NCBI GenBank assembly: GCA_038851035.1 | Contig: JAWCLH010000025.1 | Location: forward strand, 198 to 32,197 | Reading direction: 5' to 3' | Source: Thermoplasmata archaeon | GTDB taxonomy: Archaea; Thermoplasmatota; DTKX01; VGTL01 | DNA length: 32,000 bases | Shown here: one piece after another, positions 6,654 to 30,400 of the stretch | How positions within the stretch are numbered: the first letter of the stretch is position 1 | Layout of the letters: each line of letters begins with the position of its first letter | Program-made: the position numbers and the translations under genes | Notes under the pieces: generated by a model | What the model was told of the DNA's origin: nothing | Database searches by the model: none | What the model saw: the letters and a program-made list of their open reading frames with translations, nothing else

Positions 6654-9272
6654 TTACGGAGTCTCCGGCGGCGGCAACGGCGGCTGCGCGTACCCCGCGC
6701 CGGGAGCCGCGGAATTCGCGCGGCCCTTTCTTCCTCGCGCAACAAGCAGCGCGAGCACCGCAACCACCAGCACGATGATTATCAGCAAGAGCGAGCCCCA
6801 CGCGGGCATCGCCAGCCCGGCCACACCCCTCGAGGTCTCCTCCTGCTCCCTTTTCACGCCGCTCAGGCCGCCCTGCACCACCTTCACCTCAGAGCTCAGG
6901 CTCTTTATATCGTCCACGGTCGCCATCAGCCTTGAAACATTCTCCAGACGCAACATCACCGCGCTCCGGAAGCCCTCAATTCTGGCGCTCAGGTTCCCGC
7001 CCACCTCCGCCATCCCGGCGTCCAGCTCCGAAACGGCGGCCTGAATTCCGGCGAGGGTGCTCGAGTTCAGGTCCCTGACGAGCCCCTCGAGCCTTCTGTA
7101 GCTCTCCGTCTGGGTGCGGTTCGCGCCCTCCATCGCCGCCATCATCGCCCCGAGCTCCGCCAGCAGGTCCGCCCTGAAGTCCTCGAGCTCCGCCTCGAGC
7201 GCGCTGAGCTCTGCCCGGAGCGAGGCGTTCACCGCCTCCAGCGCAACGCCCAGAGCCTCGACGTCCAGCGCGAGCCGCGCCTCCATGCCCGCGATATCGG
7301 CCGAGAGGCTCCGGTTCATCGCCCTGATCTCCGCGTCCATCGCAGACAGGTCCGAGGAGACTCCGCCCACCAGCGCGCGGATGCCCTCGAGGCTAGACTG
7401 GAGCGAGGAGTTCACCGCGCTCAGGGAGCTCCTGACGGCCGCGATGTCGGCGCGCAGGGTCGTGTTCAGGCCCGAGATGTCGCCCCTGAGCTGCGCACCC
7501 AGAGCCGCTATGTCCGCGTCGATGTCCTTGATGAGGTTCGTCAGGGAGGTCTGCATCGAGCTCACGGTGCTCGAGAGCGCGTTCAGGTTCGTGTTCATCG
7601 TGCTGACCGTCGAGGAGATGCCGGCCACCGTCGTCTGGACGCCCTGCAGCGTCGTGTTGAGATAGCTCAGGTGGTACTGGAGCGCGTTCTGCGGGTTGAG
7701 CGGCTCGGGGTCGCTCGCGTCCGGGATGCCGTCGTTGTCGTCGTCCGTGTCCGCACTGTTCCCCTTCCCGTCCCGGTCGGTGTCCAGCCACTCGGTCGGG
7801 TCGAGCGGGAAGGCGTCCTGTCCGTCCGGCACCCCGTCGCCGTCGTCGTCCCAGTCCGCAGTGTCCCCGATGCCGTCAAGGTCGGTGTCGCGGTCGCAGA
7901 CGATGCTCACCAGCGCCTCGCCCCTGAGCTCGGTTCCCTCATCGAAATCGGTCTCGACCCTGTAGTAATAGGTCCGGCCGAGGCTGACGTTCGTGTCAAC
8001 ATAGGTCCTGTCCGTTGGAGCCCTGAAGGTCAGGTAGACATAGTTAGAGCCGTCCACGGAGCGGTAGATTCTGTAGCACTCGAGCGGCGCGGCCCACGAG
8101 TCCGCGGCGTCCCAGCTCAGCGTGACCCGGGCCTGATTCTGGGCGTTGGATGCCCTCAGGTTCTTCGGCCCCGGGGGCCTGACGTTAGGAAGGATGAGGT
8201 ATGTCTGGCCGGCGTACGAGCCGCCGTCCTCGTCGCCATAGGCGCCGATCAGAATGTCGTCGTAGCCGTCGGCGTTAACATCGCCCCCGCCTCCGATGGA
8301 AAGACCGGAGTCGTCATCCGAGTCCTCTCCGCAGAATGACGCAGAGGCGGAGGAGAGCTTTGTGTCCATCGCCCACCCGGAGGCCTTGCCCAGTATGAGG
8401 TATGTCTGGCCGGCGGTCGAGCCGCGGTCGTCATTGCCGTACGCCCCAATCAGGATGTCGTCGTAGCCGTCGCCGTTAACATCGCCCGCGCCCGCGACGG
8501 AGTAGCCGGAATAGTCGTACGAGTTCTCTCCCCAGAATGATGCGGAGGCAGAGGAGAGCTTCGTGTCCATCGCCCACCCGGAGGCCTTACCGAAGATGAG
8601 GTATGTCTGGCCAGCGTACGAGCCGCCGTCCTCGTCGTCGGGCGCTCCTATCAGGATGTCGTCGTAGCCGTCGCCGTTAACATCGCCCGCGCCCGCGACG
8701 GAAAAACCGGAGTTGTCATCCGAGGCCTCTCCCCAGAACGAGGCGTTTGCGCTGGAGAGCTTCATGTCCATTGACCAGCCGGATGCCCTGCCAAATATGA
8801 GATACGTTTGGCCGGCATTTCCGCCGCCCTCGTCGTTGGAGGGCGCTCCTATCAGAATGTCGTCGTAGCCGTCGCCGTTCACGTCCCCGGCGCCCGCGAC
8901 AGAGCGGCCGGAATAGTCAAATGAATTCTCGCCCCAAAACGACGCGACGGCTGACGAGAGGCTAATGTCCATCGCCCACCCGGAGGCCTTCCCGAAAATG
9001 AGGTATGTCTGGCCGGCATTTGTGCCGCCATCGTCGTTGTTGGGCGCGCTGATCAGGATGTCGTCGTAGCCGTCGCCGTTCACGTCGCCCGCGATGGCCA
9101 CGGAGACGCCCGAGTAGTCGTAGGAGCTCTCTCCCCGGAACGACGCGTGCGCTCTCGAAAGAGAGGTTCTCATGCGGGGCTCGCTGCCCTCACTAGAGGG
9201 TGCTATCGCGAGCAGCGGGGCGGTCAGGATGGCGGTCACGACCCAGAGCAGTAGAAGCTTCTTTCCGTGCAT
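6654..9272 (-). CDS. Integrin-alpha-like FG-GAP repeat surface protein with Asp-rich Ca-binding (thrombospondin type 3-like) repeats, coiled-coil stalk and C-terminal TM anchor
   Basis: Signal peptide MHGKKLLLLWVVTAILTAPLLAIA. Five 67-aa repeats of the form SFWGE..DYSG.SVAGAGDVNGDGYDDILIGAP...GQTYLIFGKASGW. Further along: DTDLDGIGDTADWDDDGDGVPDGQDAFPLDP..DTDRDGKGNSADTDDDNDGIPD, then a long Ala/Leu/Ser heptad-like region with many N-x-S/T sequons, then the TM segment LLLIIIVLVVAVLALLVA followed by RGRKGR. Confidence 0.85.
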   Translation of the reverse strand: MHGKKLLLLWVVTAILTAPLLAIAPSSEGSEPRMRTSLSRAHASFRGESSYDYSGVSVAIAGDVNGDGYDDILISAPNNDDGGTNAGQTYLIFGKASGWAMDISLSSAVASFWGENSFDYSGRSVAGAGDVNGDGYDDILIGAPSNDEGGGNAGQTYLIFGRASGWSMDMKLSSANASFWGEASDDNSGFSVAGAGDVNGDGYDDILIGAPDDEDGGSYAGQTYLIFGKASGWAMDTKLSSASASFWGENSYDYSGYSVAGAGDVNGDGYDDILIGAYGNDDRGSTAGQTYLILGKASGWAMDTKLSSASASFCGEDSDDDSGLSIGGGGDVNADGYDDILIGAYGDEDGGSYAGQTYLILPNVRPPGPKNLRASNAQNQARVTLSWDAADSWAAPLECYRIYRSVDGSNYVYLTFRAPTDRTYVDTNVSLGRTYYYRVETDFDEGTELRGEALVSIVCDRDTDLDGIGDTADWDDDGDGVPDGQDAFPLDPTEWLDTDRDGKGNSADTDDDNDGIPDASDPEPLNPQNALQYHLSYLNTTLQGVQTTVAGISSTVSTMNTNLNALSSTVSSMQTSLTNLIKDIDADIAALGAQLRGDISGLNTTLRADIAAVRSSLSAVNSSLQSSLEGIRALVGGVSSDLSAMDAEIRAMNRSLSADIAGMEARLALDVEALGVALEAVNASLRAELSALEAELEDFRADLLAELGAMMAAMEGANRTQTESYRRLEGLVRDLNSSTLAGIQAAVSELDAGMAEVGGNLSARIEGFRSAVMLRLENVSRLMATVDDIKSLSSEVKVVQGGLSGVKREQEETSRGVAGLAMPAWGSLLLIIIVLVVAVLALLVARGRKGRANSAAPGAGYAQPPLPPPETP
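8165..9143 (-). repeat. Five tandem 201-bp coding repeats (FG-GAP units)
   Basis: The same ~50-nt core (cag[ga]atgtcgtcgtagccgtc[gc]gcgtt[ac]ac[ag]tc[gc]cc...) recurs starting near 8251, 8451, 8652, 8853 and 9054. The copies at 8451 and 8652 are identical over about 50 nt. Confidence 0.9.
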
Positions 9273-17120: not shown

Positions 17121-17216
17121 GCCGCGGCCGGGCCTGAGGGGAAGGCACTGGCCGGGGTCCCGGACCCCTCTCATCCCCCAGCCGTCCCCTTCCCTTCGCC
17201 TCCCCTACCCTTCGCC

Positions 17217-17300
17217 TAAAATATTAATAGAAAATATAATAAAAATAATACAACTGAACTTGTAAAATAATTGTAATCTAAACATATATATCTCTTCCTA
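17217..17300 (+). promoter_or_regulatory. Strongly A/T-rich island containing a TATA-like box (ACATATATATC, 17282-17292) for the serpin gene
   Basis: About 85 nt are almost devoid of G/C, in an otherwise GC-rich locus. The TATA is centred about 30 nt upstream of ATG 17317. Confidence 0.5.
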
Positions 17301-17316: not shown

Positions 17317-18600
17317 ATGAGCCTGAAAACCGCCCTCTTCGCCATCCTCGTCTGCGGAGTTCTTTTGACCGCCGGGGCGACCTATACCTTCCTGCGGCCG
17401 CAGGCCAGGACCGGAAAAGCGCCTGCGGGGCCCGCGGAGCCGGAAAATGACCTGCCCTCCCCGGCGAACCTGCAGGAGCTGGTCAACGCCAGCAACCGGT
17501 TCGCGCTGGAGCTATATGCCGGGCTGAGCAATGGCGGCGAAAACATCTTCTTCTCGCCATACAGCATCTTCACCGCGCTCGGGATGACCTATGAGGGGGC
17601 GCGGAACAGGACGGCGGAAGAGATTCGCGCCGTCCTCCACCTCCCCGCGGACAACCAGACCCGCTGGTCGCTCTTCAAAGCGCTCATCGAGCGCCTGAGC
17701 GCCGGGGGCGCGGGCTGCAACCTCTCCACCGCAAACGCGATGTGGATACAGCGGGACTTCAATATCCTAAGCGATTATGTGAACACGGTCCAGACCTACT
17801 ATAGGGCCAGCGCATTCAGCGTTGATTATGCCCGGGCCGCGGAGGAGGCGAGGCAGAGAATCAACTCGTGGGTCGAGGACCAGACCGGCGGCAGAATAAA
17901 GGATTTGATTCCTCAGGGCATCCTCAACCCGCTCACGCGCCTAGTCCTGACGAACGCGATCTACTTCAGGGGCGACTGGCTGAAGCGGTTCAACGAGTCC
18001 CTGACTGAGGAAAAGGACTTCCACCCCCGGCCGGGCGAGAGCGTCAGGGTCGATATGATGGCGCGGAAGGACGAGAAATCGGTCTTCAACTACACCTCCG
18101 TGGACGGCATCCAGATTCTCGAGATGCCCTACGCCGGCGGGAAACTATCCATGCTCGTCCTCCTACCCGGGCCGGGAGAGATGGAGGGGCTGGAGGCAAA
18201 GCTGAGCCCGCGGAAGCTGGAGGAGTGGAGGTCGAAGCTGAGGGAGCGGCGCGTCGACGTTTTCTTCCCAAAGTTCAGGCTCGAGAGGAGGTACTTCCTG
18301 AATGATAATCTTTCGAGAATGGGCATGCCGACCGCTTTCAGCATGGATTCGGACTTCTCTGGAATCGACGGCGCTCAGGACCTCTACATAGCAGCGGTGA
18401 TTCATCAGGCCTTCGTCTCCGTTGATGAGAGGGGAACGGAGGCCGCGGGGGCGACGGCGGTGGTCATCGAGTACAGGAACGCCCCCGTCGAGCCCGCGGT
18501 TCCCGTATTCAACGCCGACCACCCGTTCGTATTCATCATTCAGGACAGGGAGACCGGCAGCATCCTCTTCATGGGGAAGGTGGTTGACCCGACGAAGTGA
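17317..18600 (+). CDS. Serpin (serine protease inhibitor) with N-terminal signal/anchor; predicted P1 = Arg
   Basis: FFSPYSIFTALGMTYEGA, NAIYFRGDW and the hinge/reactive-centre loop ERGTEAAGATAVVIEYR-NAPVEP followed by FNADHPFVFIIQD..G.ILFMGKVVDP. Counting from hinge Gly P15 places Arg (codon 18475-18477) at P1. Confidence 0.9.
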   Translation: MSLKTALFAILVCGVLLTAGATYTFLRPQARTGKAPAGPAEPENDLPSPANLQELVNASNRFALELYAGLSNGGENIFFSPYSIFTALGMTYEGARNRTAEEIRAVLHLPADNQTRWSLFKALIERLSAGGAGCNLSTANAMWIQRDFNILSDYVNTVQTYYRASAFSVDYARAAEEARQRINSWVEDQTGGRIKDLIPQGILNPLTRLVLTNAIYFRGDWLKRFNESLTEEKDFHPRPGESVRVDMMARKDEKSVFNYTSVDGIQILEMPYAGGKLSMLVLLPGPGEMEGLEAKLSPRKLEEWRSKLRERRVDVFFPKFRLERRYFLNDNLSRMGMPTAFSMDSDFSGIDGAQDLYIAAVIHQAFVSVDERGTEAAGATAVVIEYRNAPVEPAVPVFNADHPFVFIIQDRETGSILFMGKVVDPTK

Positions 18601-18689
18601 CGCCCTCCTCCACTCCCCGCCCTGCGGGACAGGTCCCCCATCTGCTCTCCCGGAATTCTCTTGCGATGGAACTCCAGATTTCCGGTCTT

Positions 18690-19013
18690 CTACAATTTCC
18701 CTTCCCTTGCCCTCTTCTGAAGCTTTTTCGCGCGCTCCTTCGCCGTGAAGCCGGTGGCGCGCTCGAGGAAGGCGTTGTAGGCCTTTATCGTGCTCGAGGC
18801 GACGTCGGGCGGGACGGAGGGGTTCATTTTCGTCTCGACCTTCAGCACACCCCCACCGTCCCAGACCACCGTCAGCCTCTCAATGGCCCCGTAGCTCGAG
18901 ACCAGGGCCCCGCCCTCCTTGGTCACATTGCCGAAGGCCTCCTGCATCATCGCCCTCAGCCCCCCGGCCTCGAGATTCTTCTGGTGCCCACGCCGAATCT
19001 CGTAGTCCTGCAT
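18690..19013 (-). CDS. Small conserved-looking hypothetical protein (107 aa) with Lys/Arg-rich C-terminal tail
   Basis: MQDYEIRRGH...TIKAYNAFLERATGFTAKERAKKLQKRAREGKL has a globular-looking composition and clear G/C preference at third codon positions. A TATA-like AGATATTTCT on the minus strand lies about 36 nt upstream. The track ORF extends to 19547, but that extension is repeat-derived (see the rejected list). The family is not recognised with certainty. Confidence 0.55.
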   Translation of the reverse strand: MQDYEIRRGHQKNLEAGGLRAMMQEAFGNVTKEGGALVSSYGAIERLTVVWDGGGVLKVETKMNPSVPPDVASSTIKAYNAFLERATGFTAKERAKKLQKRAREGKL

Positions 19014-19131
19014 CCGCGCACCGGCGGTGAATCTCCGCTCCCGTAGAAATATCTGTCGCGGCGGGCGGCCGGAGGACTGGCTCCGCGGGCGGGCAGAAGG
19101 GACGGGGGGCGGCGGCCGGGACGGCGGGCGC

Positions 19132-19265
19132 GCGTGGAGGCGGAGGGGGAAGAAGCAGACAGGTTCGCGGGTAGGCGGAGGAGAGAGCGGAGGGTTTGCG
19201 TGGAGGCGGAAGATGGAGCGGACAGGTTCGCGAGAAGGCGGGTGGGTGAAGATGGATATGGGGAT
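19132..19265. repeat. Two clear copies, plus about 2 degenerate copies extending to ~19380, of a 63-66 bp direct repeat in a purine-rich spacer
   Basis: GCGTGGAGGCGGA occurs at 19132-19144 and 19198-19210. GACAGGTTCGCG occurs at 19158-19169 and 19221-19232. Weaker GCGGA[AT]GG...TTC/GG units follow at about 19265 and about 19349. Confidence 0.75.
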
Positions 19266-19463
19266 GCGGAAGGAAAAGTTCACGGGCGGGTTGAGAGAGA
19301 GGCGGATGAGGATGTGGAAGTAATGGGGGAGAGTGGGGTGCAGGAGATTGCGGATGGGAAGGCGGAATTGGAATCGGCATGGCCCGCGGGGGCCTCGGGC
19401 GGCTCGTCCGGGCCCGCCCGCGCGACCGCAAACATTATTTTCCAGCAGATGTGAATAGGTGTC

Positions 19464-19631
19464 ATGAGCATTGTGGGGACCTGCCACCTCTGCGGCCGGC
19501 CGGCCATGCTCTCCTGCCCCCTTTGCGGGCGGGTTGTCTGCAACCAATGCCTTGACGCCGGCGGCAGGGTTTGCAGGATGTGCCGCAGGAAGCTGGATTC
19601 TCAGTTAAACTCCGACGACATAATGGGATGA
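19464..19631 (+). CDS. Small zinc-finger protein (55 aa, four CxxC pairs, HIT/cross-brace-like spacing); absent from the ORF track (<60 aa)
   Basis: My translation: MSIVGTCHLCGRPAMLSCPLCGRVVCNQCLDAGGRVCRMCRRKLDSQLNSDDIMG, ending in TGA at 19629-19631. The spacing is C-x2-C-x7-C-x2-C-x4-C-x2-C-x7-C-x2-C. TATA-like CATTATTTT (19433-19441) is centred about 27 nt upstream of the ATG, so a leaderless mRNA is predicted. Confidence 0.65.
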   Translation: MSIVGTCHLCGRPAMLSCPLCGRVVCNQCLDAGGRVCRMCRRKLDSQLNSDDIMG

Positions 19632-19700
19632 GGCTTGGAATCCGGCTGGACCATTGACGGCGCCAGAGCCCAAGCGTTTCCACGCGTGTGTCGGCGAGTG

Positions 19701-20924
19701 TTACACCGTTCTACGAAAGGGCCTGCGCCCCCCGCTGCTGTGGCGAGGAGCGCGCTGGGCCCTAGTGTCCGCTCTCAGGTCCCTATAGAGTCGCTCGGTG
19801 GCTCTTATGTGTCCCGGAAAGTCCTCTATGCTTCTCGATAGCTTTAGGCCGCCCGAGCCGATTCTGCGCGCCAGACCTTCGTCCCTGACAAGCTCGCGCA
19901 GCCGCCGCGCAAAGCCCTCCGTGTCCCCCGGCCTGACCACGGCCGCGCTCTCGCCATCGACAAGCCTCCCTCCGGCGACCTTGGCCGCGAGCTCATCACT
20001 GACGATAAGGCATGTCCCGCAGGCCAGAACCTCGCGGGCCAGAATCGGCGTGTGGGTCCGCACAGGGAAGCGGTGCTCGGGCATGACGACGCACCTCGCC
20101 GCCCGGATCAGCCCTGGCATCCTCCACGGCGGGACGAACCTTCTGGTTATTACTCGGGGACGGAGGCGCCTTGGAATTCTAAGGGCGCGCAGGCCGGCGG
20201 CGTCCGAGGAGACGATAAGAAGCCTGAACTCCTCCGGAATTTTGGCGGCCGCGGCCAGCAGCTCGGGAACCCCCTTCCCCCTCGTCAGCTTGCCAGCGTA
20301 GAGGAGCAATGGCACCCCCTCCGGTACGTCCAGCCTCTCGGGCCGCGCCCGCGGGCTGAAGGCGGAGGTGTCGACCGAGAGCGGGATCTCATGAATTCTT
20401 GAGGGCGCTGCCCCTAGCGCCTCCAACCGGGGTCTCGCGCCGGGCTGCGCGACCACCGCGTCGGCCGTACCGAGGAGCGCGGCGACGAGTGGCCTCAAGT
20501 GGGGGCTGCTCCCGAGCCTTACCAGGTCGCTCGCGGCGTGCCTCAGAACGAGGGGCAGCCCCGTGGCGAGCTTCGCCAGCGCGGCCGCAGCACCGTAGCT
20601 GATGAGGTACCACGCGTCCAGCACCTGCGCGCCCTCCGCCTCCTCGATTGCGGCCGAGGCGAGCTTCTCGCAGAATGGGTTCGACTCGGGAATCAGCTGG
20701 TGGTCCTGAAACGGGTCTGTATTCCTCACCCTGACCCCGCGGCCCTGATAGGAATCGATATCCGGGCCGTGCAGCTCCTCGCGGTGGCGGTCCTCGACCT
20801 CGAAGGCATTCGTCACGACGGTCACCCTGTGCCCCCTCGAGGCCAGCCCGCGCGCGAGCCAGTAGGTGCAGGATGATACGTACCCCTCGATGGGCGGGTA
20901 CTTGGAGACAAGAACGAGCTTCAT
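19701..20924 (-). CDS. GT-B fold glycosyltransferase (GT4-like)
   Basis: The N-terminus MKLVLVSKYPPIEGYVSSCTYWLARGLASRGHRVTVVT is typical of GT4 N-domains. The C-domain shows LLLYAGKLTRGKGV and ...VVMPEHRFPVRTHTPILAREVLACGTCLIVSDE (an E-x7-E-like region). Its ATG lies 7 nt after the stop of the upstream small ORF. Confidence 0.8.
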   Translation of the reverse strand: MKLVLVSKYPPIEGYVSSCTYWLARGLASRGHRVTVVTNAFEVEDRHREELHGPDIDSYQGRGVRVRNTDPFQDHQLIPESNPFCEKLASAAIEEAEGAQVLDAWYLISYGAAAALAKLATGLPLVLRHAASDLVRLGSSPHLRPLVAALLGTADAVVAQPGARPRLEALGAAPSRIHEIPLSVDTSAFSPRARPERLDVPEGVPLLLYAGKLTRGKGVPELLAAAAKIPEEFRLLIVSSDAAGLRALRIPRRLRPRVITRRFVPPWRMPGLIRAARCVVMPEHRFPVRTHTPILAREVLACGTCLIVSDELAAKVAGGRLVDGESAAVVRPGDTEGFARRLRELVRDEGLARRIGSGGLKLSRSIEDFPGHIRATERLYRDLRADTRAQRAPRHSSGGRRPFRRTV

Positions 20925-20931
20925 AGATGGC

Positions 20932-21135
20932 TCACGGGACGCAGCCTATGCAGCTCCCGCAGACGGTGGTGCACCCTCCACCGCAGCCCCCGCAGCCGCC
21001 GCCGCAGCCCCCGCAGCCACCGTCGCAGCCGCCGCAGCCGTGGTCGGCGCGGCGCGGGCCGCGCGCGCGCCGGGCGCGGCACCCTGCCCAGAAGGCGAAC
21101 CTGCGGAGCTCCCTCAGCTCTTCCTCAGTCGGCAA
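20932..21135 (-). CDS. Candidate precursor peptide: 67 codons, charged/Arg-rich N-terminal half and Cys/Gly-repeat C-terminal half
   Basis: (TTG)PTEEELRELRRFAFWAGCRARRARGPRRADH-GCGGCDGGCGGCGGGCGGCGGGCTTVCGSCIGCVP. The only start-type codon is TTG at 21135. It is preceded by GGAGGGTGGTG (GGAGG at 21146-21150, 10-nt spacing), overlaps the rSAM stop, and ends 7 nt before the GT start. All Cys codons are TGC, while Gly codons vary (GGC/GGT/GGG/GGA). The caveats are the non-ATG start and the low-complexity GC-rich DNA. Confidence 0.55.
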   Translation of the reverse strand: MPTEEELRELRRFAFWAGCRARRARGPRRADHGCGGCDGGCGGCGGGCGGCGGGCTTVCGSCIGCVP

Positions 21136-22213
21136 TTCCCACCACCCTCCAGCACTGCGGGTCCGCCGCCATTGGGTCCCCGGAGACCCCGTGGGCCACC
21201 GCCATGCAGCCCCGGCAGAACGGCAGCAGCCTGCATCGGGAGCACCTCCTCATCCTCTCGTAGGAGCGGAGGCTTCGATGCCCGTCGGAATAGATAAATA
21301 TTTCCCTGAGGCTGGCCCCGGGCACCTTCCCGATTATTACGGGCAGCCTCCGGCAGGACAGGACGGTCCCGTCGGCGAGGATTGTGAGAATTCTGTAGCC
21401 CACCGAGCACCCCGAGTATATCACGCCCCTCTCGCGTGGGAGCCGCGGGAGAAGGCCGAGCTCGTGGTAGAGGAGGGTCCAGAGGTTCTCCTTGCGGCCG
21501 AAGTGCGTCCCGCAGCCCTCCGCCCGGAGGCGCCTGTACTCCTCGAGGACCTGGAGGAGCAGCTCGCGGTACTCCTCCGGCGCCAGGAGCTGGTTTTTGA
21601 GCGCCCTCCCGCTCCCTGTCGGAACGAGGCGGGCGAAGTCGAAGACCCTGACGCCCTCGCTCGCACAGAGACGAATCACGGGTATAAGCTCGGCCGCGTT
21701 CAGGCGGCTGACGGTGAACATGACTACGGACGGAAGGTCCACAGCGTTCAGGATGCGTATCGCCCGAATAGCGTCCCTGAAGGCCCCCCTCCGGCCCCGC
21801 AAGGCGTCGTGGGTCCTCTCAAGCCCGTCGATGCTTATCTGGTACCTGACCACGCCGGCGTCCCTGAGCTCCCTCGCTTTCTTTTTCGTTAAAAGACGCG
21901 GGTTCCCCAGAATGCCGACCATCATGCCCATCGAACTGGCTCTCCTGCAAAGGTCCGTCAGGTCCTTCCTGAGCAGGGGGTCGCCGCCGCTGAAACTTAC
22001 CCTCCCCCTCACCCCCCAGGCCTCGAGGGTTTCTCCGAAGTCCTCCAGAACTCTCACGCACTCCTCGGGGCCGAGCTCGTTCCTGAGCTCCGATTCATAG
22101 GTTGGGGAATCGTGCATGTAGCAGTGCCTGCACCTCTCTCCGCATCTCGCGGTCAGGTGCCACTGGAGGACGAAGAGCCTCCTGTCCTGCGGGAGCTCAG
22201 TTGCCGGGGGCAT
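21125..22213 (-). CDS. Radical SAM enzyme with C-terminal SPASM domain (peptide/protein maturase-type)
   Basis: CGERCRHC (C24-x3-C28-x2-C31; 22121-22144), the GGDPLL SAM-binding motif, and the full 7-Cys SPASM pattern C269-x12-G-x4-C287 ... C324-x2-C327-x5-C333-x2-C336 ... C354 (21152-21409). It ends ..DPQCWRVVGIAD. Confidence 0.9.
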   Translation of the reverse strand: MPPATELPQDRRLFVLQWHLTARCGERCRHCYMHDSPTYESELRNELGPEECVRVLEDFGETLEAWGVRGRVSFSGGDPLLRKDLTDLCRRASSMGMMVGILGNPRLLTKKKARELRDAGVVRYQISIDGLERTHDALRGRRGAFRDAIRAIRILNAVDLPSVVMFTVSRLNAAELIPVIRLCASEGVRVFDFARLVPTGSGRALKNQLLAPEEYRELLLQVLEEYRRLRAEGCGTHFGRKENLWTLLYHELGLLPRLPRERGVIYSGCSVGYRILTILADGTVLSCRRLPVIIGKVPGASLREIFIYSDGHRSLRSYERMRRCSRCRLLPFCRGCMAVAHGVSGDPMAADPQCWRVVGIAD

Positions 22214-22718
22214 GGGACTGCAGCAGCCTCGCGGCCTCTGCCGGCTCGAGGTCTAGGGCCCTAGCGAAATAAGTCAGGGCCTTTCCGCGCGCGCGGTCGA
22301 GTTCCTCTCGCGAGACCTCATCCTCCATTCCTCTTAACACGGCCATGTAGAGCTCGATTCCGAGGTCGGAGAAATAGTAGGGCGCGTTCTCGGGGTCGAG
22401 CTCCGCGGCTTTTTTATAGCATTCCTCGGCCAGCTCCGTCTTTCCCTCGCGCAAGCAGAAAGCGCCGAGCTGGGTCTGGGTCATCGCCCTCTCGCCCGGC
22501 TCCTTCTGGAGTTCTATAGCCTTCTGATAGCTCGCCACTATCTCTCCCGCCTCAATGTCAGGCAAAGCCGCGGCAGCCTCCGCCTTCCCCAGATAGGCCT
22601 CGGCGTTGGAGGGGTCGAGCTTTATCGCGCGGTTGAAGCGTGACAGGGCCCCCTTGTAGTCCCCCGCGGCCAGAAGCCTCTGGCCCGCGGCCACCTCCTT
22701 CGACGCGTCCTCGGGCAT
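22197..22718 (-). CDS. Tetratricopeptide-repeat (TPR) protein
   Basis: GDYKGALSRFNRAIKLDPSNAEAYLGKAEA and AEECYKKAAELDPENAPYY are TPR consensus stretches. ATG 22718, preceded by GGAGCGAGG, is preferred. The track start at 22949 would cross the A/T-rich divergent promoter region. The stop overlaps the rSAM start by 17 nt. Confidence 0.7.
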   Translation of the reverse strand: MPEDASKEVAAGQRLLAAGDYKGALSRFNRAIKLDPSNAEAYLGKAEAAAALPDIEAGEIVASYQKAIELQKEPGERAMTQTQLGAFCLREGKTELAEECYKKAAELDPENAPYYFSDLGIELYMAVLRGMEDEVSREELDRARGKALTYFARALDLEPAEAARLLQSHAPGN

Positions 22719-22744
22719 CCTCGCTCCCCGGGGGAGCCAATCGT

Positions 22745-22840
22745 GGACCACGATATTAATCTTGTTCTCTTCCGTCCACGCCCCACTACCCTTCGAAAAT
22801 AATAAATGCTCACTGGAGGATGAGGCATTGAGGAATAAAT
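22745..22840. promoter_or_regulatory. A/T-rich divergent promoter region
   Basis: TTAATAT on the minus strand (22754-22760) lies about 38 nt upstream of ATG 22718. AAAATAATAAAT on the plus strand (22796-22807) lies about 40 nt upstream of TTG 22841, with GAGG at 22830-22833. Confidence 0.45.
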
Positions 22841-23587
22841 TTGTTCTGGCCGCGTGCTCCGGCGGTTCTGCTGCAAATCGCGCCGCATGATACCGGCTGG
22901 ACGCCTCAGGAGTACCTTCCCCCGCCCCCGCGTCCCCAGGGTCATCCACTGCCCCTCCTTTTCAGGGTCGGCGCCATCGGTCTGCTCCTGATGGCCGCGG
23001 CCAGCTTTGCAGCCCTCCTCCTCATCGGACACACTCTCTTTCGCCCAGGGACGGATCCGTCAACCGCAGAGCGCTGGTTTCCGTTCATCCCTGCCCTGAT
23101 GTGCTGCGGCTCCCTTCTGTCGGCGGTGGGGTACTTCAGCAAACTACACCACTACGGCTCGGCCATAGGCGCGGTCACAGGAGGTTCCCTAGTTCCGGCA
23201 ACATTGATGTTTATGGATTTTCTCCTGTCCTCCTCGCAAATCCGACTGACTTATTATTGGGATGTCTTTGGGTGGGGAGCGGCAATGTTCTTCTTTTTCG
23301 GTGTCTGCGCGATACTGATGGGCGTTTCCCATATCGTCTCCCGCTTCCATATGGGTCACCCCTATCTCGGTGGGACCGCCGGAATTTTCTTCATTCTCTC
23401 AGGGGCCTTCTTCCTGTCCTATTTCCTGTTTCCAATTGGCATCGCCCTCTTTTTTGGCGCCTCCATCTGCGGCGCCTTGAACCTTATGCTGGCCAGATAC
23501 TATGAATACTGGCCCGGGGGGGCACTGGAGCCGCCGAACTCTCCGAACTACCCGCGCTGGCCCCCTCCGGTCGAAAAGGTGCGATGA
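22841..23587 (+). CDS. Polytopic membrane protein of unknown function (~6 TM helices)
   Basis: Successive hydrophobic helices (GAIGLLLMAAASFAALLLIG; FPFIPALMCCGSLLSAVGYF; GWGAAMFFFFGVCAILMGV; GIFFILSGAFFLSYFLFPIGIALFFGASICGAL). GC is visibly lower than in neighbouring genes. The start is uncertain: TTG 22841 has a GAGG 7 nt upstream, and the next in-frame ATG (22991) would cut TM1. Confidence 0.6.
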   Translation: MFWPRAPAVLLQIAPHDTGWTPQEYLPPPPRPQGHPLPLLFRVGAIGLLLMAAASFAALLLIGHTLFRPGTDPSTAERWFPFIPALMCCGSLLSAVGYFSKLHHYGSAIGAVTGGSLVPATLMFMDFLLSSSQIRLTYYWDVFGWGAAMFFFFGVCAILMGVSHIVSRFHMGHPYLGGTAGIFFILSGAFFLSYFLFPIGIALFFGASICGALNLMLARYYEYWPGGALEPPNSPNYPRWPPPVEKVR

Positions 23588-23615
23588 GCGTCCTCGGGTC
23601 GGGGCGCCGGCCCTC

Positions 23616-25154
23616 TCAAAGTATCGGCGTGTTCCTGAGCCACTCGAGGTCCGGGAGGTAGAGCCGGCGCATGTCGTCTATGCCGTAGCGCTTCATCACC
23701 AGCCTCTCGAGCCCGAGACCCCACGCCAGAACAGGGTGCTTTATGCCAAACGGCGCGGTCACCTCAGGGCGGAAAATCCCAGCCCCCCCGAGCTCCATCC
23801 AGCTGCCGTCGAAGAAGACCTCGACGTCGAGCGAGGGCTCGGTGTAGGGGTAGTAGGAGGGCCTGAATCGAATACCGGTGAATCCCATCCTCTCGTAGAA
23901 CTCCTTGAGCGTCCCCATGAGCATTCGGAAGGAGGCTCCCTCCTCCATGATTATACCCTCGATCTGGTGGAACTCGGCCAGGTGCGTCGCGTCGGTGGCC
24001 TCGCGTCTGAACACCCTGCCGACCGAGAAGGCCTTGACGGGCGGCTCCGGGTGCTCTGAGAGGTAGCGGATGGTGTTGACGGTGGTGTGGGTGCGCAGGA
24101 GCGCCCTCGATGCCTCCTCCTCCGACCATCTGTAGCGCCAGCCGTCCGAGCCGGTGTCGCCGCCGGTCTCGTGTATCTGCCTTATCAGCTCAGGGAGTCG
24201 GGGCGGGAGCTCGATTCTCGGTGGATTCTTCAGGTAGAAGGTGTCCTGCGCGTCCCGAGCGGGGTGGTCCTGCGGGATGAACAGGACGTCCATGTCCCAG
24301 AAGCAGGACTCGACGAAGTCGCCCTCTATCTCGGTGAAGCCCATGTGCAGGAATATGCTCCGAATTCTCTTTATCGCCTCGCGCAGGATGTGGGGCTTGC
24401 CACCTTGCGCCGCTGGGGCATAGGTATTTACATCGTAGGGCCTGAGCTCCACACCCCTCCAGGCCCCGCTGGTGATGAGCTCGGGCGTGAGCTGGGTCAG
24501 CTCCTCGCCGACCTCCAGCCCGGCCTCGACGAGCTTTCTGCCCCTCTCCGTGAGAACCAGCGTCCTCAGTCGCCTCTCCCTCGCCCTCAGCAGGCCTTTG
24601 CGCGTCAGGAGGAGAGGGAGCGAGCTGGCCCCGATTCTGCGCGCCTCGTCCTCCGGCAGACCGCCCTCCCGCCCCGCGGCCCTCAGGAGCGCAAGCTCCT
24701 CGCCCTCCGGCCCCCTTCTTAGGGCTTCGCGGCCCTCATCCGTGAGAGATATCCAGCTCCTCCCCGCCTCCTTCAGGATGCTGGCCCAGCCATTCCTCCT
24801 CAGCCACCCAAGGGCGACTCTCAGCTCCTCGGAGCCCATTCCAGGGGGCTTCAGCGCGCCCATCTCAACCCTCCCGCCCCTCCCCAGCTCCTCCAGCACC
24901 CTCAGGAGGGTGAACTCTGGGAGCTCGCCCCTCTCCACGTACCTTCTCCCCTCGTCATCGAGGAAGTAGGTGGTCTGAATTCGCTCGTGGATTTCCAGAA
25001 GCCCCTTCGACCTGAGCCACGAGGCCGCGCTCATCACCTCGACCAGCTCCCGGAAGCCTCCCTCCCTCACCACGTCCTCCGGGGCCGCGCTCCCCAGCCT
25101 TGAGATCGCGAGCAGGACCCTCCTCTCGTTCCTCGAGAGCTCCTCCGCAGCCAT
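23616..25154 (-). CDS. pheS: Phenylalanine--tRNA ligase alpha subunit, archaeal type
   Basis: FLHMGFTEIEG.FVES.FWDMDVLFIPQDHPARD.QDTFYL, motif 2 FRRE..DATHLAEFHQIEG, and motif 3 GAGIFRPEV. The long N-terminal winged-helix-like extension is typical of archaeal/eukaryal PheS. Confidence 0.92.
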   Translation of the reverse strand: MAAEELSRNERRVLLAISRLGSAAPEDVVREGGFRELVEVMSAASWLRSKGLLEIHERIQTTYFLDDEGRRYVERGELPEFTLLRVLEELGRGGRVEMGALKPPGMGSEELRVALGWLRRNGWASILKEAGRSWISLTDEGREALRRGPEGEELALLRAAGREGGLPEDEARRIGASSLPLLLTRKGLLRARERRLRTLVLTERGRKLVEAGLEVGEELTQLTPELITSGAWRGVELRPYDVNTYAPAAQGGKPHILREAIKRIRSIFLHMGFTEIEGDFVESCFWDMDVLFIPQDHPARDAQDTFYLKNPPRIELPPRLPELIRQIHETGGDTGSDGWRYRWSEEEASRALLRTHTTVNTIRYLSEHPEPPVKAFSVGRVFRREATDATHLAEFHQIEGIIMEEGASFRMLMGTLKEFYERMGFTGIRFRPSYYPYTEPSLDVEVFFDGSWMELGGAGIFRPEVTAPFGIKHPVLAWGLGLERLVMKRYGIDDMRRLYLPDLEWLRNTPIL

Positions 25155-27228: not shown

Positions 27229-27397
27229 GGACCCACGGGACCACCAGCATGGGCCGCCGATAAATAACTATCGTAGGTGGTCTGCCGAGTTGCTTCCGGA
27301 CGCCGAGGCTGCCGTGGGGTCAACTCCGGCAGAGGGAAAAAATGCGCAAAATCTCTTATCACAACGCTTAAATATCACGCAAAAAAAGTACTATTGA

Positions 27398-27407
27398 TTT
27401 TATATAT
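27398..27407 (+). promoter_or_regulatory. TATA-like element (TTTTATATAT) for the second giant surface protein gene
   Basis: Centred about 27 nt upstream of GTG 27430 and about 36 nt upstream of ATG 27439. Confidence 0.5.
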
Positions 27408-27438
27408 CGCCGGCGCAGAAGCTCTCGCGGTGAGCTGG

Positions 27439-30400
27439 ATGACGAGAGCCGTCGCGATTGCGCTTTGCCTCTTACTGACCATCCCGGTTGCCCATGGCCC
27501 AAGTATCTCGCAGAACCCGCCGGCCGGCCCCGACCGCGCGCGGGACCCGGGAGCCACCCTGACCGGGGAGCGGGGCTCCGGGCCGCTGCATGAGCCTGCC
27601 GCAGAGACGGTTGAGGAAGCGTGCGCCTCCGGAAACCACGCCAGCGCGGCGGGGCATAACGCCCGGTGCCGAGAAAGTCCGGAGAACGAAGAGCCGGCTC
27701 CAGAGATTGAGCGCGCTGATTCACGGGGCCCGGGGGGTGCGCAATCCTCGGCCAAAATGGAGGTGGAAGGGAAAGGGACCTCTCCGTCCGCGCAGAAAGA
27801 GGACAAAACGGCGGGGATTGCACTTCCTGACGCTCATGAAGGAGCGGGCGACGGCAGGCTCGTCGTGATATCCAACGCCACGAACATCACCCTCGCGCTC
27901 GGGACCTTCAGCACCACCCTGCGCTACTTCCCTGACCCGAAGACGAACATCGGGACGCTCCAGAAGGGCGTTCCCGTGGACATCACGGGCCAGCTCGTTG
28001 ACGGAAACTACACCGAGCTCGGCGCGGGCGGCGCGGGCGCGGCGATGAGGAACCACGGAATCGCAAACATTGTTGAGATGGTCTACTGGGAGTTCAACCA
28101 CGAGCCCCAGACGCCGCTCGCTCTGGCGTGGAAGAACCCGGACGACATCAACGACACCGACATCAACGGGACCTTCGTGATTCAGCAGTGGGCGCCCGAT
28201 GTTCCGAAGGCCGGGCTCTACCCGATGGTCTTCTACTTCGAGGGCGCCTCGGTCGAGATCGGCGGCACGATATACAACATCTACCCGCCCTGCAGGAAGG
28301 AGTTCCTCGTGGCGGTCCAGTTCCCAGTGGAGCTCACCGTCGAGGTCTCGCCCGCGGCGCCGGAGGCGGGCGGGAACATAACGATAACCGGGACCGCGAG
28401 GGGCACGGACGGCGTCTCGCTGGACAACGAGGGCCTCCTGGTCTCGTTCGCGGGGACAAGAATCGGCGCCCCGCTGCCCGCGGGCTGGTACATCGACGAC
28501 GTCACCGTCGTCGCCGACACCCTCAGGACGGTCCTGAAGGAGAACTTCGAGACCGGCGGCACGGGCTGGACGCACGGCGGCGTCGGCGACGACTGGATGA
28601 TTGGAATACCGGCGAGCCCGATAGGCCCGACGAGCGCGAACAGCGGCCAGAGGTGCGCCGGGACCAATCTCAAGGGCTCGTACCAGCAGCTCGCGGACTG
28701 CGTTCTGGTCAGCCCCGACTTCAACCTGAGCATGGCGTTCAGCGCGCAGCTCTCCTTCTTCGAGTGGTACGACCTCGCCAGAGAGGACTCGATACTCGTT
28801 TCGCTGGAGGCGCTGATAGGCGGCCTGTGGATCGAGAGCGACGCGATCGAGGTGAACGGGAGCAGGCCCCAGTGGGCCCAGAGGACCATAGACTTCAGCG
28901 AGTTCACGAGGGGCGGCGGCGTTTTCGAGGCGGTGGGGTCGGAGAGGGTGCACATCAAGTTCAGGCTCGTCAGCCGGACCTTCTCCGTCTACACCTCCGG
29001 CGGAGAATACTCCTTCAGGTACCGGATACCGGACGAGACGCTTCCCGGAGAGCAGAACCTGACGGTGACGCACCCCGCCTCCCTCCTGTACGCCCACGGC
29101 TCCGTCTCGAAGGTTTTCCCGGTCAAGAGGCCGACGACCTTCGTCTTCCCCACAAACCCCGCGGCGCACATCGCATACCGTAGCAGCGCGGACGGCTCGA
29201 TACAGAAGTACATCGAGCTCAGGGCGAGGCTGGTCGACAGCCGCGGCGACCCGCCGATGATGAAGATAAAGGACGAGAAGGGCGAGGAGATCAGGCAGGA
29301 CTACACGGTCAAGGTCTACTGGGACGCCACGCCGCTCGACCCGCGCGACCAGCCGAAGCTGATTGGGAACGCGAGACCGCTGAACATGACGGAGAACTTC
29401 TGGGACGGCTCGCTGACGATCGCGTACAAGGTACCGAACGACCAGCCCCTGGGGCCGGTCTATGTGATATTCAGCTTCGGCGGAACTAGGTACTACTCCC
29501 CGGGCGAGGCCACAGATTCCTACACGGTGATGGCGCACACCTTCATCGAGCCCCCGCCGCCGGAGGAGAGGACCGTCTTCAGGGGAAGCACGGTCAACCT
29601 CTACGGCGTCCTGAAGGTGAGGCCGGAGGAGAGCCAGTTCGACACCATCCGCGGGGACCCCGTGCAGCTGAAGAACATCAGAATCTTCTGGGCGGGCGAG
29701 GAGCAGACGAAGGAGGGGAGGACGGTCATCACCGAGCTCGACGGCACATTCTCGATGTCGTATCATGTGTCGAGCACGCACGCCCTCGGGCTGGTCCCCG
29801 TGAGCTTCAAATTCGACGGCGACGACAGGTACCAGCCCTGCGCGGCGGACGTGAACTACTCCGTCAAGTCGCAGACATTCATCACGCTCGAGCCGCAGAC
29901 GGTGATGAAGGGCGTCCCGATCGACGTCTACATAGACGGCGTCCGGAGGCTGGGAATCGCCGGCGTTCTCAGGGACGACAAGGGCGACAGAATCGGCGGC
30001 GTGCCCGTGACGCTCAAGAGGCTCAGACTCGGGACCGAGGAGACGCTGAAGAGCAACCTGATAACGGGACCGGACGGCGTGTTCGTTTATCCGTTCACGG
30101 TCAGGTTCGAGGACCCCGTGGGCAACCTCACGCTCATCGCCACATTCGCCGGCGACGACAAGTACACGAGGTCCACGAACATGACCAACTACACGGTGCG
30201 CGTCAGGACCTCCATCGAGAGAATCGACACTCAGACCGAGGTCGCGCGCGGCGGGACGCTGAACGTTCAGGCGCTCCTCTACGAGGACTGGAACGGCGCC
30301 CCCGGGTACGAGATAAAATACGAGATGGTCACACTCTCGCTCGACGGCCAGCCGCTCACGAACAACATGACCGACAGCGGCGGCCAGGTCTCGTTCCGCT

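Follow-up and report, generated by a model that had tools for sequence, protein, structure and literature searches.

The open reading frame (ORF) at positions 20932..21135 on the minus strand of a 32,000-nt stretch of DNA from a Thermoplasmata archaeon (contig JAWCLH010000025.1; the whole stretch is called the window below) is a coding gene under purifying selection. It encodes a small peptide with a Cys/Gly-rich C-terminal core and lies between the genes for a radical S-adenosylmethionine (SAM)/SPASM enzyme and a family 4 glycosyltransferase (GT4), and this three-gene set recurs in many uncultured archaea and bacteria. Sequence comparison makes it probable that the product is a precursor akin to those of peptides that are synthesized ribosomally and then modified post-translationally (RiPPs), belonging to the radical SAM and GT4 cassette and serving as a substrate of the neighboring radical SAM/SPASM enzyme. 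NCBI annotates the ORF as hypothetical protein QW379_08115 of a Thermoplasmata metagenome-assembled genome. A first-pass annotation, made from the DNA alone, had proposed that the repeat is maintained by selection on the protein and is not a plain microsatellite; the translation quoted there is identical to that of the ORF. The parts of the gene and its ribosome-binding motif are as follows.

20932..21135, minus strand: putative precursor-peptide gene, 67 aa, TTG start; start and stop conserved, pN/pS 0.109
20935..21036, minus strand: core peptide, residues 34-67, CGGCDGGCGGCGGGCGGCGGGCTTVCGSCIGCVP; predicted to be disordered
21037..21135, minus strand: leader region, residues 1-33; charged, helix predicted at residues 4-24
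21088..21108, minus strand: leader motif L-R-R-F-A-F-W, residues 10-16; conserved
21140..21150, minus strand: Shine-Dalgarno-like GGAGGGTGGTG, within the 3' end of the radical SAM gene

Homology searches and two collection scans yielded 20 related Thermoplasmatota loci, the window included, in which the radical SAM enzyme is 67-84% identical to that of the window and the locus reaches beyond the radical SAM gene. The peptide ORF was found at the same place in 20 of the 20 loci, and in 18 of them the core length and the Cys spacing were unchanged. The sole core length variant, in loci L086 and L087, has one GGC unit fewer as the result of an in-frame 9-nt change, so that none of the indels departs from a multiple of three. 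Codon analyses were performed on the 13 distinct standard-length core DNA sequences, where the variable sites at codon positions 1, 2, and 3 numbered 3, 3, and 24. In the window, Cys is encoded by TGC throughout while Gly uses GGC, GGT, GGG, and GGA, as had been pointed out; over the 13 cores, Cys was encoded by TGC 128 times and by TGT twice, and Gly by GGC (142), GGG (42), GGT (13), and GGA (12). When the Nei-Gojobori proportions of synonymous (pS) and nonsynonymous (pN) differences were calculated, the proposed frame had a pS of 0.377, a pN of 0.041, and a pN/pS of 0.109, the lowest of the six frames. The start codon occupies a single aligned position in 19 loci (ATG in 6, GTG in 10, and TTG in 3), and the position of the stop is conserved among the orthologues. 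Because the repeat number is fixed, the variability is concentrated at third codon positions, the pN/pS is low, and the start position and gene junctions are conserved, we conclude that the ORF is a gene under selection and not a microsatellite or slippage repeat; the orthologue alignment and frame-specific test, which the first-pass annotation had suggested as a check, thus bear out its central proposal. We hold with high confidence that the ORF is a real gene.

The contrary view is that there is no gene here, either because the frame is spurious within a GC-rich microsatellite or because the true product is the PPQ-repeat ORF that the first-pass annotation had noticed on the opposite strand. 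This view can draw on the 67% GC content of the DNA, which keeps many frames open, and on the TTG start, upstream of which, as already remarked, the frame contains no ATG or GTG as far as the preceding stop. It can also draw on the tandem repeat visible in the DNA, where Tandem Repeats Finder reported periods of 9, 12, 21, and 30 nt at 20981-21040 (the first two matching the period claimed from inspection, and the 21-nt unit corresponding to one CGG plus one CGGG), and on a pN/pS that is also below 1 (0.26) in the antisense PPQ frame, the four remaining frames giving 2.4-4.2. Nevertheless, the orthologue comparison has already refuted it, and we regard it as extremely improbable: the substitutions follow the codon positions of the proposed frame, the repeat number does not drift, the two ends of the ORF stay in place, and other phyla have cores that differ in sequence but are alike in architecture. 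The antisense PPQ-repeat frame does exist, within an ORF of 321 aa that runs antisense to the radical SAM gene, but among the orthologues the length of that ORF varies between 114 and 555 aa. Since its boundaries are not conserved and its pN/pS is above that of the sense frame, we rejected it as a real product. As this case shows, frame-specific substitution analysis can validate a small ORF within GC-rich repeat DNA with no more than sequence data.

The predicted peptide has two distinct parts. The core has 34 residues, of which 10 are Cys (the recount agrees with the number first given) and 16 are Gly, and successive cysteines along it are separated by 2, 3, 2, 3, 2, 3, 3, 2, and 2 residues. 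AlphaFold predicted a helix at residues 4-24; for the first 20 residues the predicted local distance difference test score (pLDDT) was 74-85. The core, with a pLDDT of about 35, was predicted to be disordered. The leader had been described as amphipathic and charged; the charge is there (9 K/R and 5 D/E), but its hydrophobic moment was no higher than that of shuffled controls, and the amphipathic part of the description was not upheld. In an alignment of seven database homologues, the core is invariant from C34 onward, and the leader residues E6, L10, F15, and W16 are invariant; behind them comes a basic linker whose length varies. Both the length and the sequence of the leader vary C-terminal of the FW motif. 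Scans of the window peptide against Pfam and NCBIfam gave no match. Judged from its sequence, a peptide with a helical charged leader carrying LR[RK][FY][AS]FW and a disordered 34-residue Cys/Gly core is probably of the precursor type, and its division into leader and core corresponds to the two-part architecture expected of a RiPP precursor.

The junctions of the peptide gene with its neighbors indicate a translationally coupled operon of TPR, radical SAM/SPASM, peptide, and GT4 genes. The neighboring members are listed below.

21125..22213, minus strand: radical SAM/SPASM enzyme, 362 aa; presumed maturase
19701..20924, minus strand: GT4-family glycosyltransferase, 407 aa; co-oriented, conserved third member of the cassette
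22197..22949, minus strand: TPR-repeat protein, 250 aa; its stop overlaps the radical SAM start by 17 nt

In the window, the peptide gene overlaps the radical SAM stop by 11 nt (7-17 nt among the orthologues), and the GT4 gene begins 7 nt after the peptide. A GGAGG at 21150-21146 is positioned 10 nt upstream of the TTG, inside the radical SAM gene that ends at 21125, and GGAGGGTGGTG also serves as codons for the conserved W-R-V-V at the C terminus of the radical SAM enzyme. Either GGAGG or GGAAGG is kept about 10 nt upstream of the peptide start in 16 orthologous junctions. The motif had been located correctly before, and the translational coupling deduced from it is consistent with these overlaps. 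In most orthologues the TGA of the peptide overlaps the ATG of the glycosyltransferase (cCATGAag). The last Pro codon of the peptide (20935-20937 in the window) is CCA in 11 of 13 orthologues, and its A provides the ATG of the glycosyltransferase; therefore, this synonymous site is constrained by the start of the neighboring gene. The window and locus L001 have CCG at this codon, with the glycosyltransferase start 7-8 nt downstream. A scan of 18500-23800 for sigma-70 promoters, which does not cover archaeal promoters, returned one promoter-like site against 0.8 expected, and a scan of the same region for intrinsic terminators found none on the minus strand.

We assigned the enzyme at 21125..22213 to the radical SAM/SPASM superfamily on the basis of its cluster motifs and Pfam scores (PF04055, 84.1 bits, cutoff 29.5; PF13186, 26.7 bits, cutoff 21.5). 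The CX3CX2C motif (C24, C28, and C31) reaches at least 90% conservation across 30 diverse homologues and is invariant in 23 close homologues, and the seven cysteines of the SPASM motif (C269, C287, C324, C327, C333, C336, and C354) are, together with G282, invariant in the 30 diverse homologues. The enzyme has neither a RiPP recognition element (RRE) domain nor an RRE-like N-terminal extension. Its structure model is of high confidence (pLDDT 88) and has the peptide-modifying SPASM enzymes SkfB, PqqE, SuiB, anSME, and ChlB as fold neighbors. The fold comparison confirms a peptide-type SPASM enzyme and does not discriminate among chemistries. In the NCBIfam ranking, the ACGX-system radical SAM family comes first, followed by SbtM (for the core part only) and then by AhbD and NirJ-type enzymes.

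The third member of the cassette, at 19701..20924, is a GT4 glycosyltransferase, with both Pfam domains above threshold (PF13439, 42.8 bits, cutoff 28.5; PF00534, 52.8 bits, cutoff 26.4); no specific NCBIfam family was reached, the best score being 38 bits against a cutoff of 480. The first-pass annotation had not included the glycosyltransferase in a conserved set, nor had it extended the family beyond its lineage, and both observations go further than it did. When neighboring ORFs were clustered, GT4 recurred with the radical SAM gene in 17 of the 19 close loci and in 14 of the 21 wide ones. A tblastn survey found an adjacent, co-oriented glycosyltransferase homologue in about 44 loci: all 19 of the close clade with sufficient flanking sequence, and about 25 that are more distant. 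Three gene orders were observed: radical SAM-peptide-glycosyltransferase, peptide-radical SAM-glycosyltransferase, and radical SAM-glycosyltransferase-peptide. The radical SAM and glycosyltransferase genes are separated by 3-17 nt where the peptide is encoded elsewhere, by 175-320 nt where one peptide gene intervenes, and by 1.3-1.7 kb where several do. Glycosyltransferase identity tracks radical SAM identity closely (Spearman 0.94, n = 36; 0.90 outside the close clade), which fits inheritance as a unit.

A scan of all 146 fetched loci and the window revealed a wider family of about 40 loci, in which a radical SAM/SPASM enzyme 40-84% identical to that of the window adjoins a peptide gene on the same strand whose product has a [KR][YF]x[FY]W leader and a Cys-rich core, usually in the company of a co-oriented GT4. 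The more distant members (radical SAM enzymes 40-61% identical) have a Cys/Gly/Ser-rich C-terminal core with CxxC, CxC, and CxxxC spacing. Across the family the leader takes the form L-x-[KR]-[YF]-x-[FY]-W, and its Trp (W16) is invariant in 22 diverse members. Bacterial hosts include Thermodesulfobacterium, Chlorobium, Firestonebacteria, Gammaproteobacteria, Planctomycetota-like contigs, Shapirobacteria, and Saccharibacteria; Woesearchaeota, Iainarchaeota, and unbinned metagenome contigs are represented too, and the span takes in both DPANN and the candidate phyla radiation (CPR). Three loci of bacterial type (L100:1474-2129, L102:4975-5487, and L104:1657-2533) have two or three tandem diverged precursors between the radical SAM and glycosyltransferase genes, each with an EKYQFWK leader and with differing Cys/Gly/Ser cores. 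The wide-family peptides belong to no Pfam or NCBIfam family, their only matches being sub-threshold, compositional ones to heterocycloanthracin. When the subfamily alignment was used for an exhaustive profile search of 1.84 billion representatives, nine proteins were returned (six of the subfamily, two of the wider family, and one unrelated), and a word-indexed search with the wide alignment returned 25, all unnamed or 'hypothetical'; both counts are lower bounds because small ORFs are under-called. A literature search on archaeal RiPPs, radical SAM enzymes, and glycosyltransferases turned up nothing describing a radical SAM-peptide-GT4 cassette. As a separate observation, one subclade (L018:3654-3842, L020:5076-5252, and L022:2003-2275), labeled Gammaproteobacteria, Saccharibacteria, and Patescibacteria, has cores that end in HGD[DG]xCGGDG[DE], with fewer cysteines and no adjacent GT4, and possibly represents another variant of this system.

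The pairing of a radical SAM/SPASM enzyme with a Cys-rich repeat peptide is of a kind already known, and the closest relative is the bioinformatically defined ACGX system (TIGR04340 for the enzyme and TIGR04341 for the peptide). The two share a compact radical SAM/SPASM enzyme of about 340-360 aa with no RRE domain, a short same-strand peptide next to it whose leader ends in an aromatic residue (...VAAF/W in ACGX and ...FAFW here), and a repetitive core of small residues that contains Cys-Gly. TIGR04340 is the best NCBIfam match of the window enzyme, over its full length (3e-82); homologues 53-68% identical to it are in some cases tagged 'ACGX system' by JGI; and the leaders align where expected, as L..[VFY]A[AF][FW]. 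It might therefore be asked whether the locus is an ordinary ACGX member with a slightly unusual repeat. We consider this improbable. The window enzyme reaches only 276.5 bits against a TIGR04340 cutoff of 400, and seven FW/GT-linked enzymes score 276-339, whereas the ACGX enzymes of L049 and L040 score 551 and 527 bits and form a clade of their own, apart from the FW/GT-linked enzymes, in a neighbor-joining tree. The window peptide had no TIGR04341 match at E<=1, nor did the peptide of orthologue L090 or seven wide-family peptides at E<=10, while a Ruminococcus ACGX peptide scored 29.3 bits (cutoff 28). The window core contains no ACGx unit and no ACGx-ADP units: in ACGX, ACG[AST]ADP units recur every 7-10 residues, but here a Cys occurs every 3-4 residues in a Gly matrix. 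ACGX peptides (for example MSEMLNRVAAF...SACGAADPAPSACGAADP...DKK) are encoded upstream of the radical SAM gene, unlike the window peptide, which is downstream and overlapping, and ACGX loci never carry the GT4 that is part of the set here. When the peptide profiles were compared by hhalign, L..[FY].FW was matched to the L..VAAF of ACGX over 12 columns, with a probability of 0.85% and an E of 0.065, which is not significant. ACGX membership was thus rejected on curated cutoffs, core sequence, gene order, and the lack of a glycosyltransferase in ACGX loci, and these sequence criteria place the system of the window as a sister of ACGX, not a member. Genuine ACGX loci were recovered in the same scan from Ruminococcus, Collinsella, other Coriobacteriia, Treponema, and Methanobacteriaceae. 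In Coriobacteriia, including Collinsella, such loci (L040:3296-3937, L052:3303-3944, L061, L065, and others) have a conserved ORF of about 210 aa between the peptide and the radical SAM gene, with two ferredoxin-like CxxCxxCxxxCP motifs, possibly a dedicated electron donor. A literature search found no paper that joins 'ACGX' with radical SAM, and the chemistry of ACGX appears to be uncharacterized too.

Among the top hidden Markov model (HMM) matches of the window enzyme, SbtM (SbtMa, TIGR04082) is the only experimentally characterized peptide maturase. This second-best match spans the whole radical SAM/SPASM core (205.8 bits against a cutoff of 350; model positions 197-515 of 516), but the N-terminal region of SbtM, about 195 residues, has no counterpart in the 362-aa enzyme of the window. 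SbtM acts on Cys or selenocysteine of a ribosomal peptide and, by removing 4 H, produces a thio(seleno)oxazole (PMC11002830). For SbtMa and the bufferins, an absorbance maximum near 302-305 nm is reported (PMC12538549). The window ORF contains no in-frame TGA of the kind that encodes selenocysteine in SbtM-type peptides, although a selenocysteine insertion sequence (SECIS) element was not searched for, and the review of SbtM describes no glycosyltransferase for it, whereas the set in the window includes GT4 (PMC11002830). The synthases of sactipeptides and ranthipeptides (SCIFF) likewise are radical SAM/SPASM enzymes that link Cys sulfur to carbon in leader-bearing, Cys-rich peptides, and SkfB (PDB 6efn) is the top PDB match by both sequence and fold, at about 23% identity. 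However, these synthases usually have an RRE domain, which the window enzyme does not, the core here offers 10 donors and almost no non-Gly acceptors, and none of the SCIFF or sactipeptide families is among the 25 best NCBIfam matches of the enzyme except for low-scoring SkfB and StsB. The best size-matched structural neighbor is anSME (PDB 4k36-4k39; TM 0.70-0.73 both ways), likewise a minimal radical SAM plus SPASM enzyme without an RRE, which takes H from the C-beta of Cys in a peptide; it is 15-17% identical, and its target is a single Cys within a sulfatase motif instead of a small repeat peptide dedicated to it.

Precursors of the heterocycloanthracin-type TOMM class (TIGR03601) also combine a leader with a repetitive Cys/Gly/Ser-rich core. 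One could accordingly propose that the cysteines become thiazol(in)es through a YcaO cyclodehydratase encoded elsewhere, a proposal to which the Gly/Cys-rich repeats typical of that class and the weak TIGR03601 scores of wide-family peptides (13-24 bits) lend something. We judge it very improbable, since no score reaches the cutoff of 35 bits and the matches are compositional, the window peptide has no match, no YcaO, dehydrogenase, or docking protein was found among the large ORFs scanned in the 32-kb window or among the recurrent neighbors, and the conserved partner is a radical SAM/SPASM enzyme; we therefore rejected the TOMM assignment. A functional analogy, and only that, is possible with MNIO-made thiooxazole or oxazolone-thioamide metallophores: MNIO enzymes turn cysteines of ribosomal peptides into metal-binding heterocycles in bufferins and methanobactins (bioRxiv 10.1101/2025.11.18.689057, PMC12538549), but these DUF692/MNIO enzymes depend on O2, and the locus has no gene of this type. 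What is new is an unnamed variant that scores below the thresholds of the nearest family, with a rigid (CGG/CGGG)n core, a GT4 partner, and a span across archaea and bacteria.

Our model for the cassette has the leader docking the peptide onto the radical SAM/SPASM enzyme, which would then draw on 5'-deoxyadenosyl-radical chemistry and its pair of auxiliary Fe-S clusters for an oxidative modification of the cysteines in the core. GT4 would then glycosylate the peptide, and the outcome would be a compact thiol-rich or heterocycle-rich glycopeptide that plausibly binds metal. That the peptide is a substrate of the radical SAM enzyme is what we infer from the cassette; the chemistry, the action of the glycosyltransferase on the peptide, and the function of the product are speculative. 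Two candidate chemistries stand out for the oxidative step, neither of which we would rate above a minority chance, and the same is true of any other single chemistry. S-C thioether cross-links (sactionine or ranthionine) are the commonest fate of Cys in radical SAM RiPPs, and they are a candidate here by analogy with SkfB, the top PDB match; however, the ten donors in the core would have almost only glycines as acceptors. SbtM-type conversion of Cys to thiooxazole is the other candidate, as a change made residue by residue would be well matched to closely packed Cys-Gly repeats and would yield a product that binds metal strongly. Glycosylation by GT4 would plausibly fall at conserved D, T/S, or Cys positions.

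Several observations favor the precursor model. The conserved leader with its invariant Trp, joined to cores that differ across phyla, and the predicted helix followed by a disordered core are typical of RiPP precursors. No YcaO, lanthipeptide enzyme, or other RiPP maturase was found among the large ORFs scanned in the 32-kb window. The chief competing explanation is that the peptide is translated and stays unmodified, acting as a metallothionein-like or Fe-S-binding buffer or carrier of metal or sulfur that merely shares an operon with the enzymes. Ten cysteines in 34 residues with CxxC/CxxxC spacing, surrounded by small residues, resemble metal-binding peptides, the radical SAM enzyme itself needs three Fe-S clusters, and the conserved cassette has no protease or exporter. 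Even so, we think it unlikely. A conserved leader separate from the Cys core, combined with cores that change from phylum to phylum, is hard to reconcile with a simple chelator; adjacency to a radical SAM/SPASM gene across about 40 loci, some with 2-3 tandem precursor copies, is the RiPP pattern; and the nearest curated relative of the enzyme, that of ACGX, is paired with a repeat peptide, while the next nearest, SbtM, is a characterized peptide maturase (PMC11002830).

A number of points nevertheless weigh against the precursor model. The absence of an RRE domain makes recognition of the leader an assumption, the leader shows no recognizable cleavage motif, and the conserved cassette includes neither a protease nor a dedicated exporter. 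An almost all-Gly core offers few side-chain acceptors for ranthionine-type links. With regard to the glycosyltransferase, about 15 wide-family loci with adequate flanks have none, among them a CPR/Gammaproteobacteria subclade with cores ending in HGDGxCGGDGD/E, and shared organismal phylogeny could explain or contribute to its correlation with the radical SAM enzyme. Its matches, all of them weak, are to retaining GT4 enzymes of a generic kind (sucrose-phosphate synthase, GlgM, BshA, and MshA), and since it resembles only such enzymes acting on sugars and small molecules, it could serve another pathway. Translation and modification of the peptide are, moreover, predictions from sequence.

The TPR gene is conserved in 18 close loci and 0 wide loci, that is, in the Thermoplasmatota clade only, and the downstream DUF5611 gene likewise recurs only there. 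Farther upstream lie the genes for PheRS-alpha and an ABC-2 transporter pair, and a serpin gene follows the DUF5611 gene downstream. A functional link of the TPR or DUF5611 proteins to the cassette is not inferable, as PheRS and the serpin are also syntenic in the close clade; a role of the TPR protein as a leader-binding partner is possible. The serpin gene (17317-18600, plus strand) is full-length (Pfam Serpin, 397 bits) and is syntenic with the cassette in about nine related loci. Just upstream of it, at 17185-17250, the sequence is AT-rich and contains short repeats. A 31-nt tandem repeat of 2.8 copies at 19154-19241 lies within the part of ORF 18690..19547 (minus strand) that encodes an N-terminal extension. 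Because the DUF5611 domain covers only aa 179-278 of that ORF and the L002 orthologue is 107 aa long, this repeat probably lies in the intergenic region that separates the GT4 gene from the DUF5611 gene. Elsewhere in the window, a 201-nt tandem repeat (8194-9147, 4.7 copies, 79% matches) lies in ORF 6654..9272 (minus strand), which encodes 872 aa with FG-GAP repeats; the product, repetitive at the protein level, is probably a surface protein. Two very large ORFs probably encode surface proteins as well: one of 1427 aa with CARDB domains (10272-14555, minus strand), and one of 1431 aa with DUF4129 and a weak, sub-threshold match to the Ig-like Big_3_5 (27277-31572, plus strand). Both have long antisense ORFs, which is typical of the GC-rich background.

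If the inference of a modified peptide holds, the cassette would represent an unnamed peptide-modification system in Thermoplasmatota, DPANN, CPR, and several other anaerobic lineages, hosts for which almost no natural-product chemistry has been shown experimentally. The substrate would be an extreme one, with ten cysteines in 34 residues of an otherwise nearly pure Gly matrix and a conserved core spacing, and the companionship of a GT4 enzyme is unusual for radical SAM RiPP systems. At the far end of what the data suggest, and as a doubtful extension that we put forward only tentatively, the family could be a phylum-spanning RiPP class of anaerobes, genome-reduced DPANN and CPR included, in which the radical SAM enzyme would form thiooxazole or thioether units and the glycosyltransferase would glycosylate the peptide, as an O2-independent counterpart of MNIO metallophores for metal handling. 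All of this would be encoded in a small cassette of three genes and about 2.7 kb.

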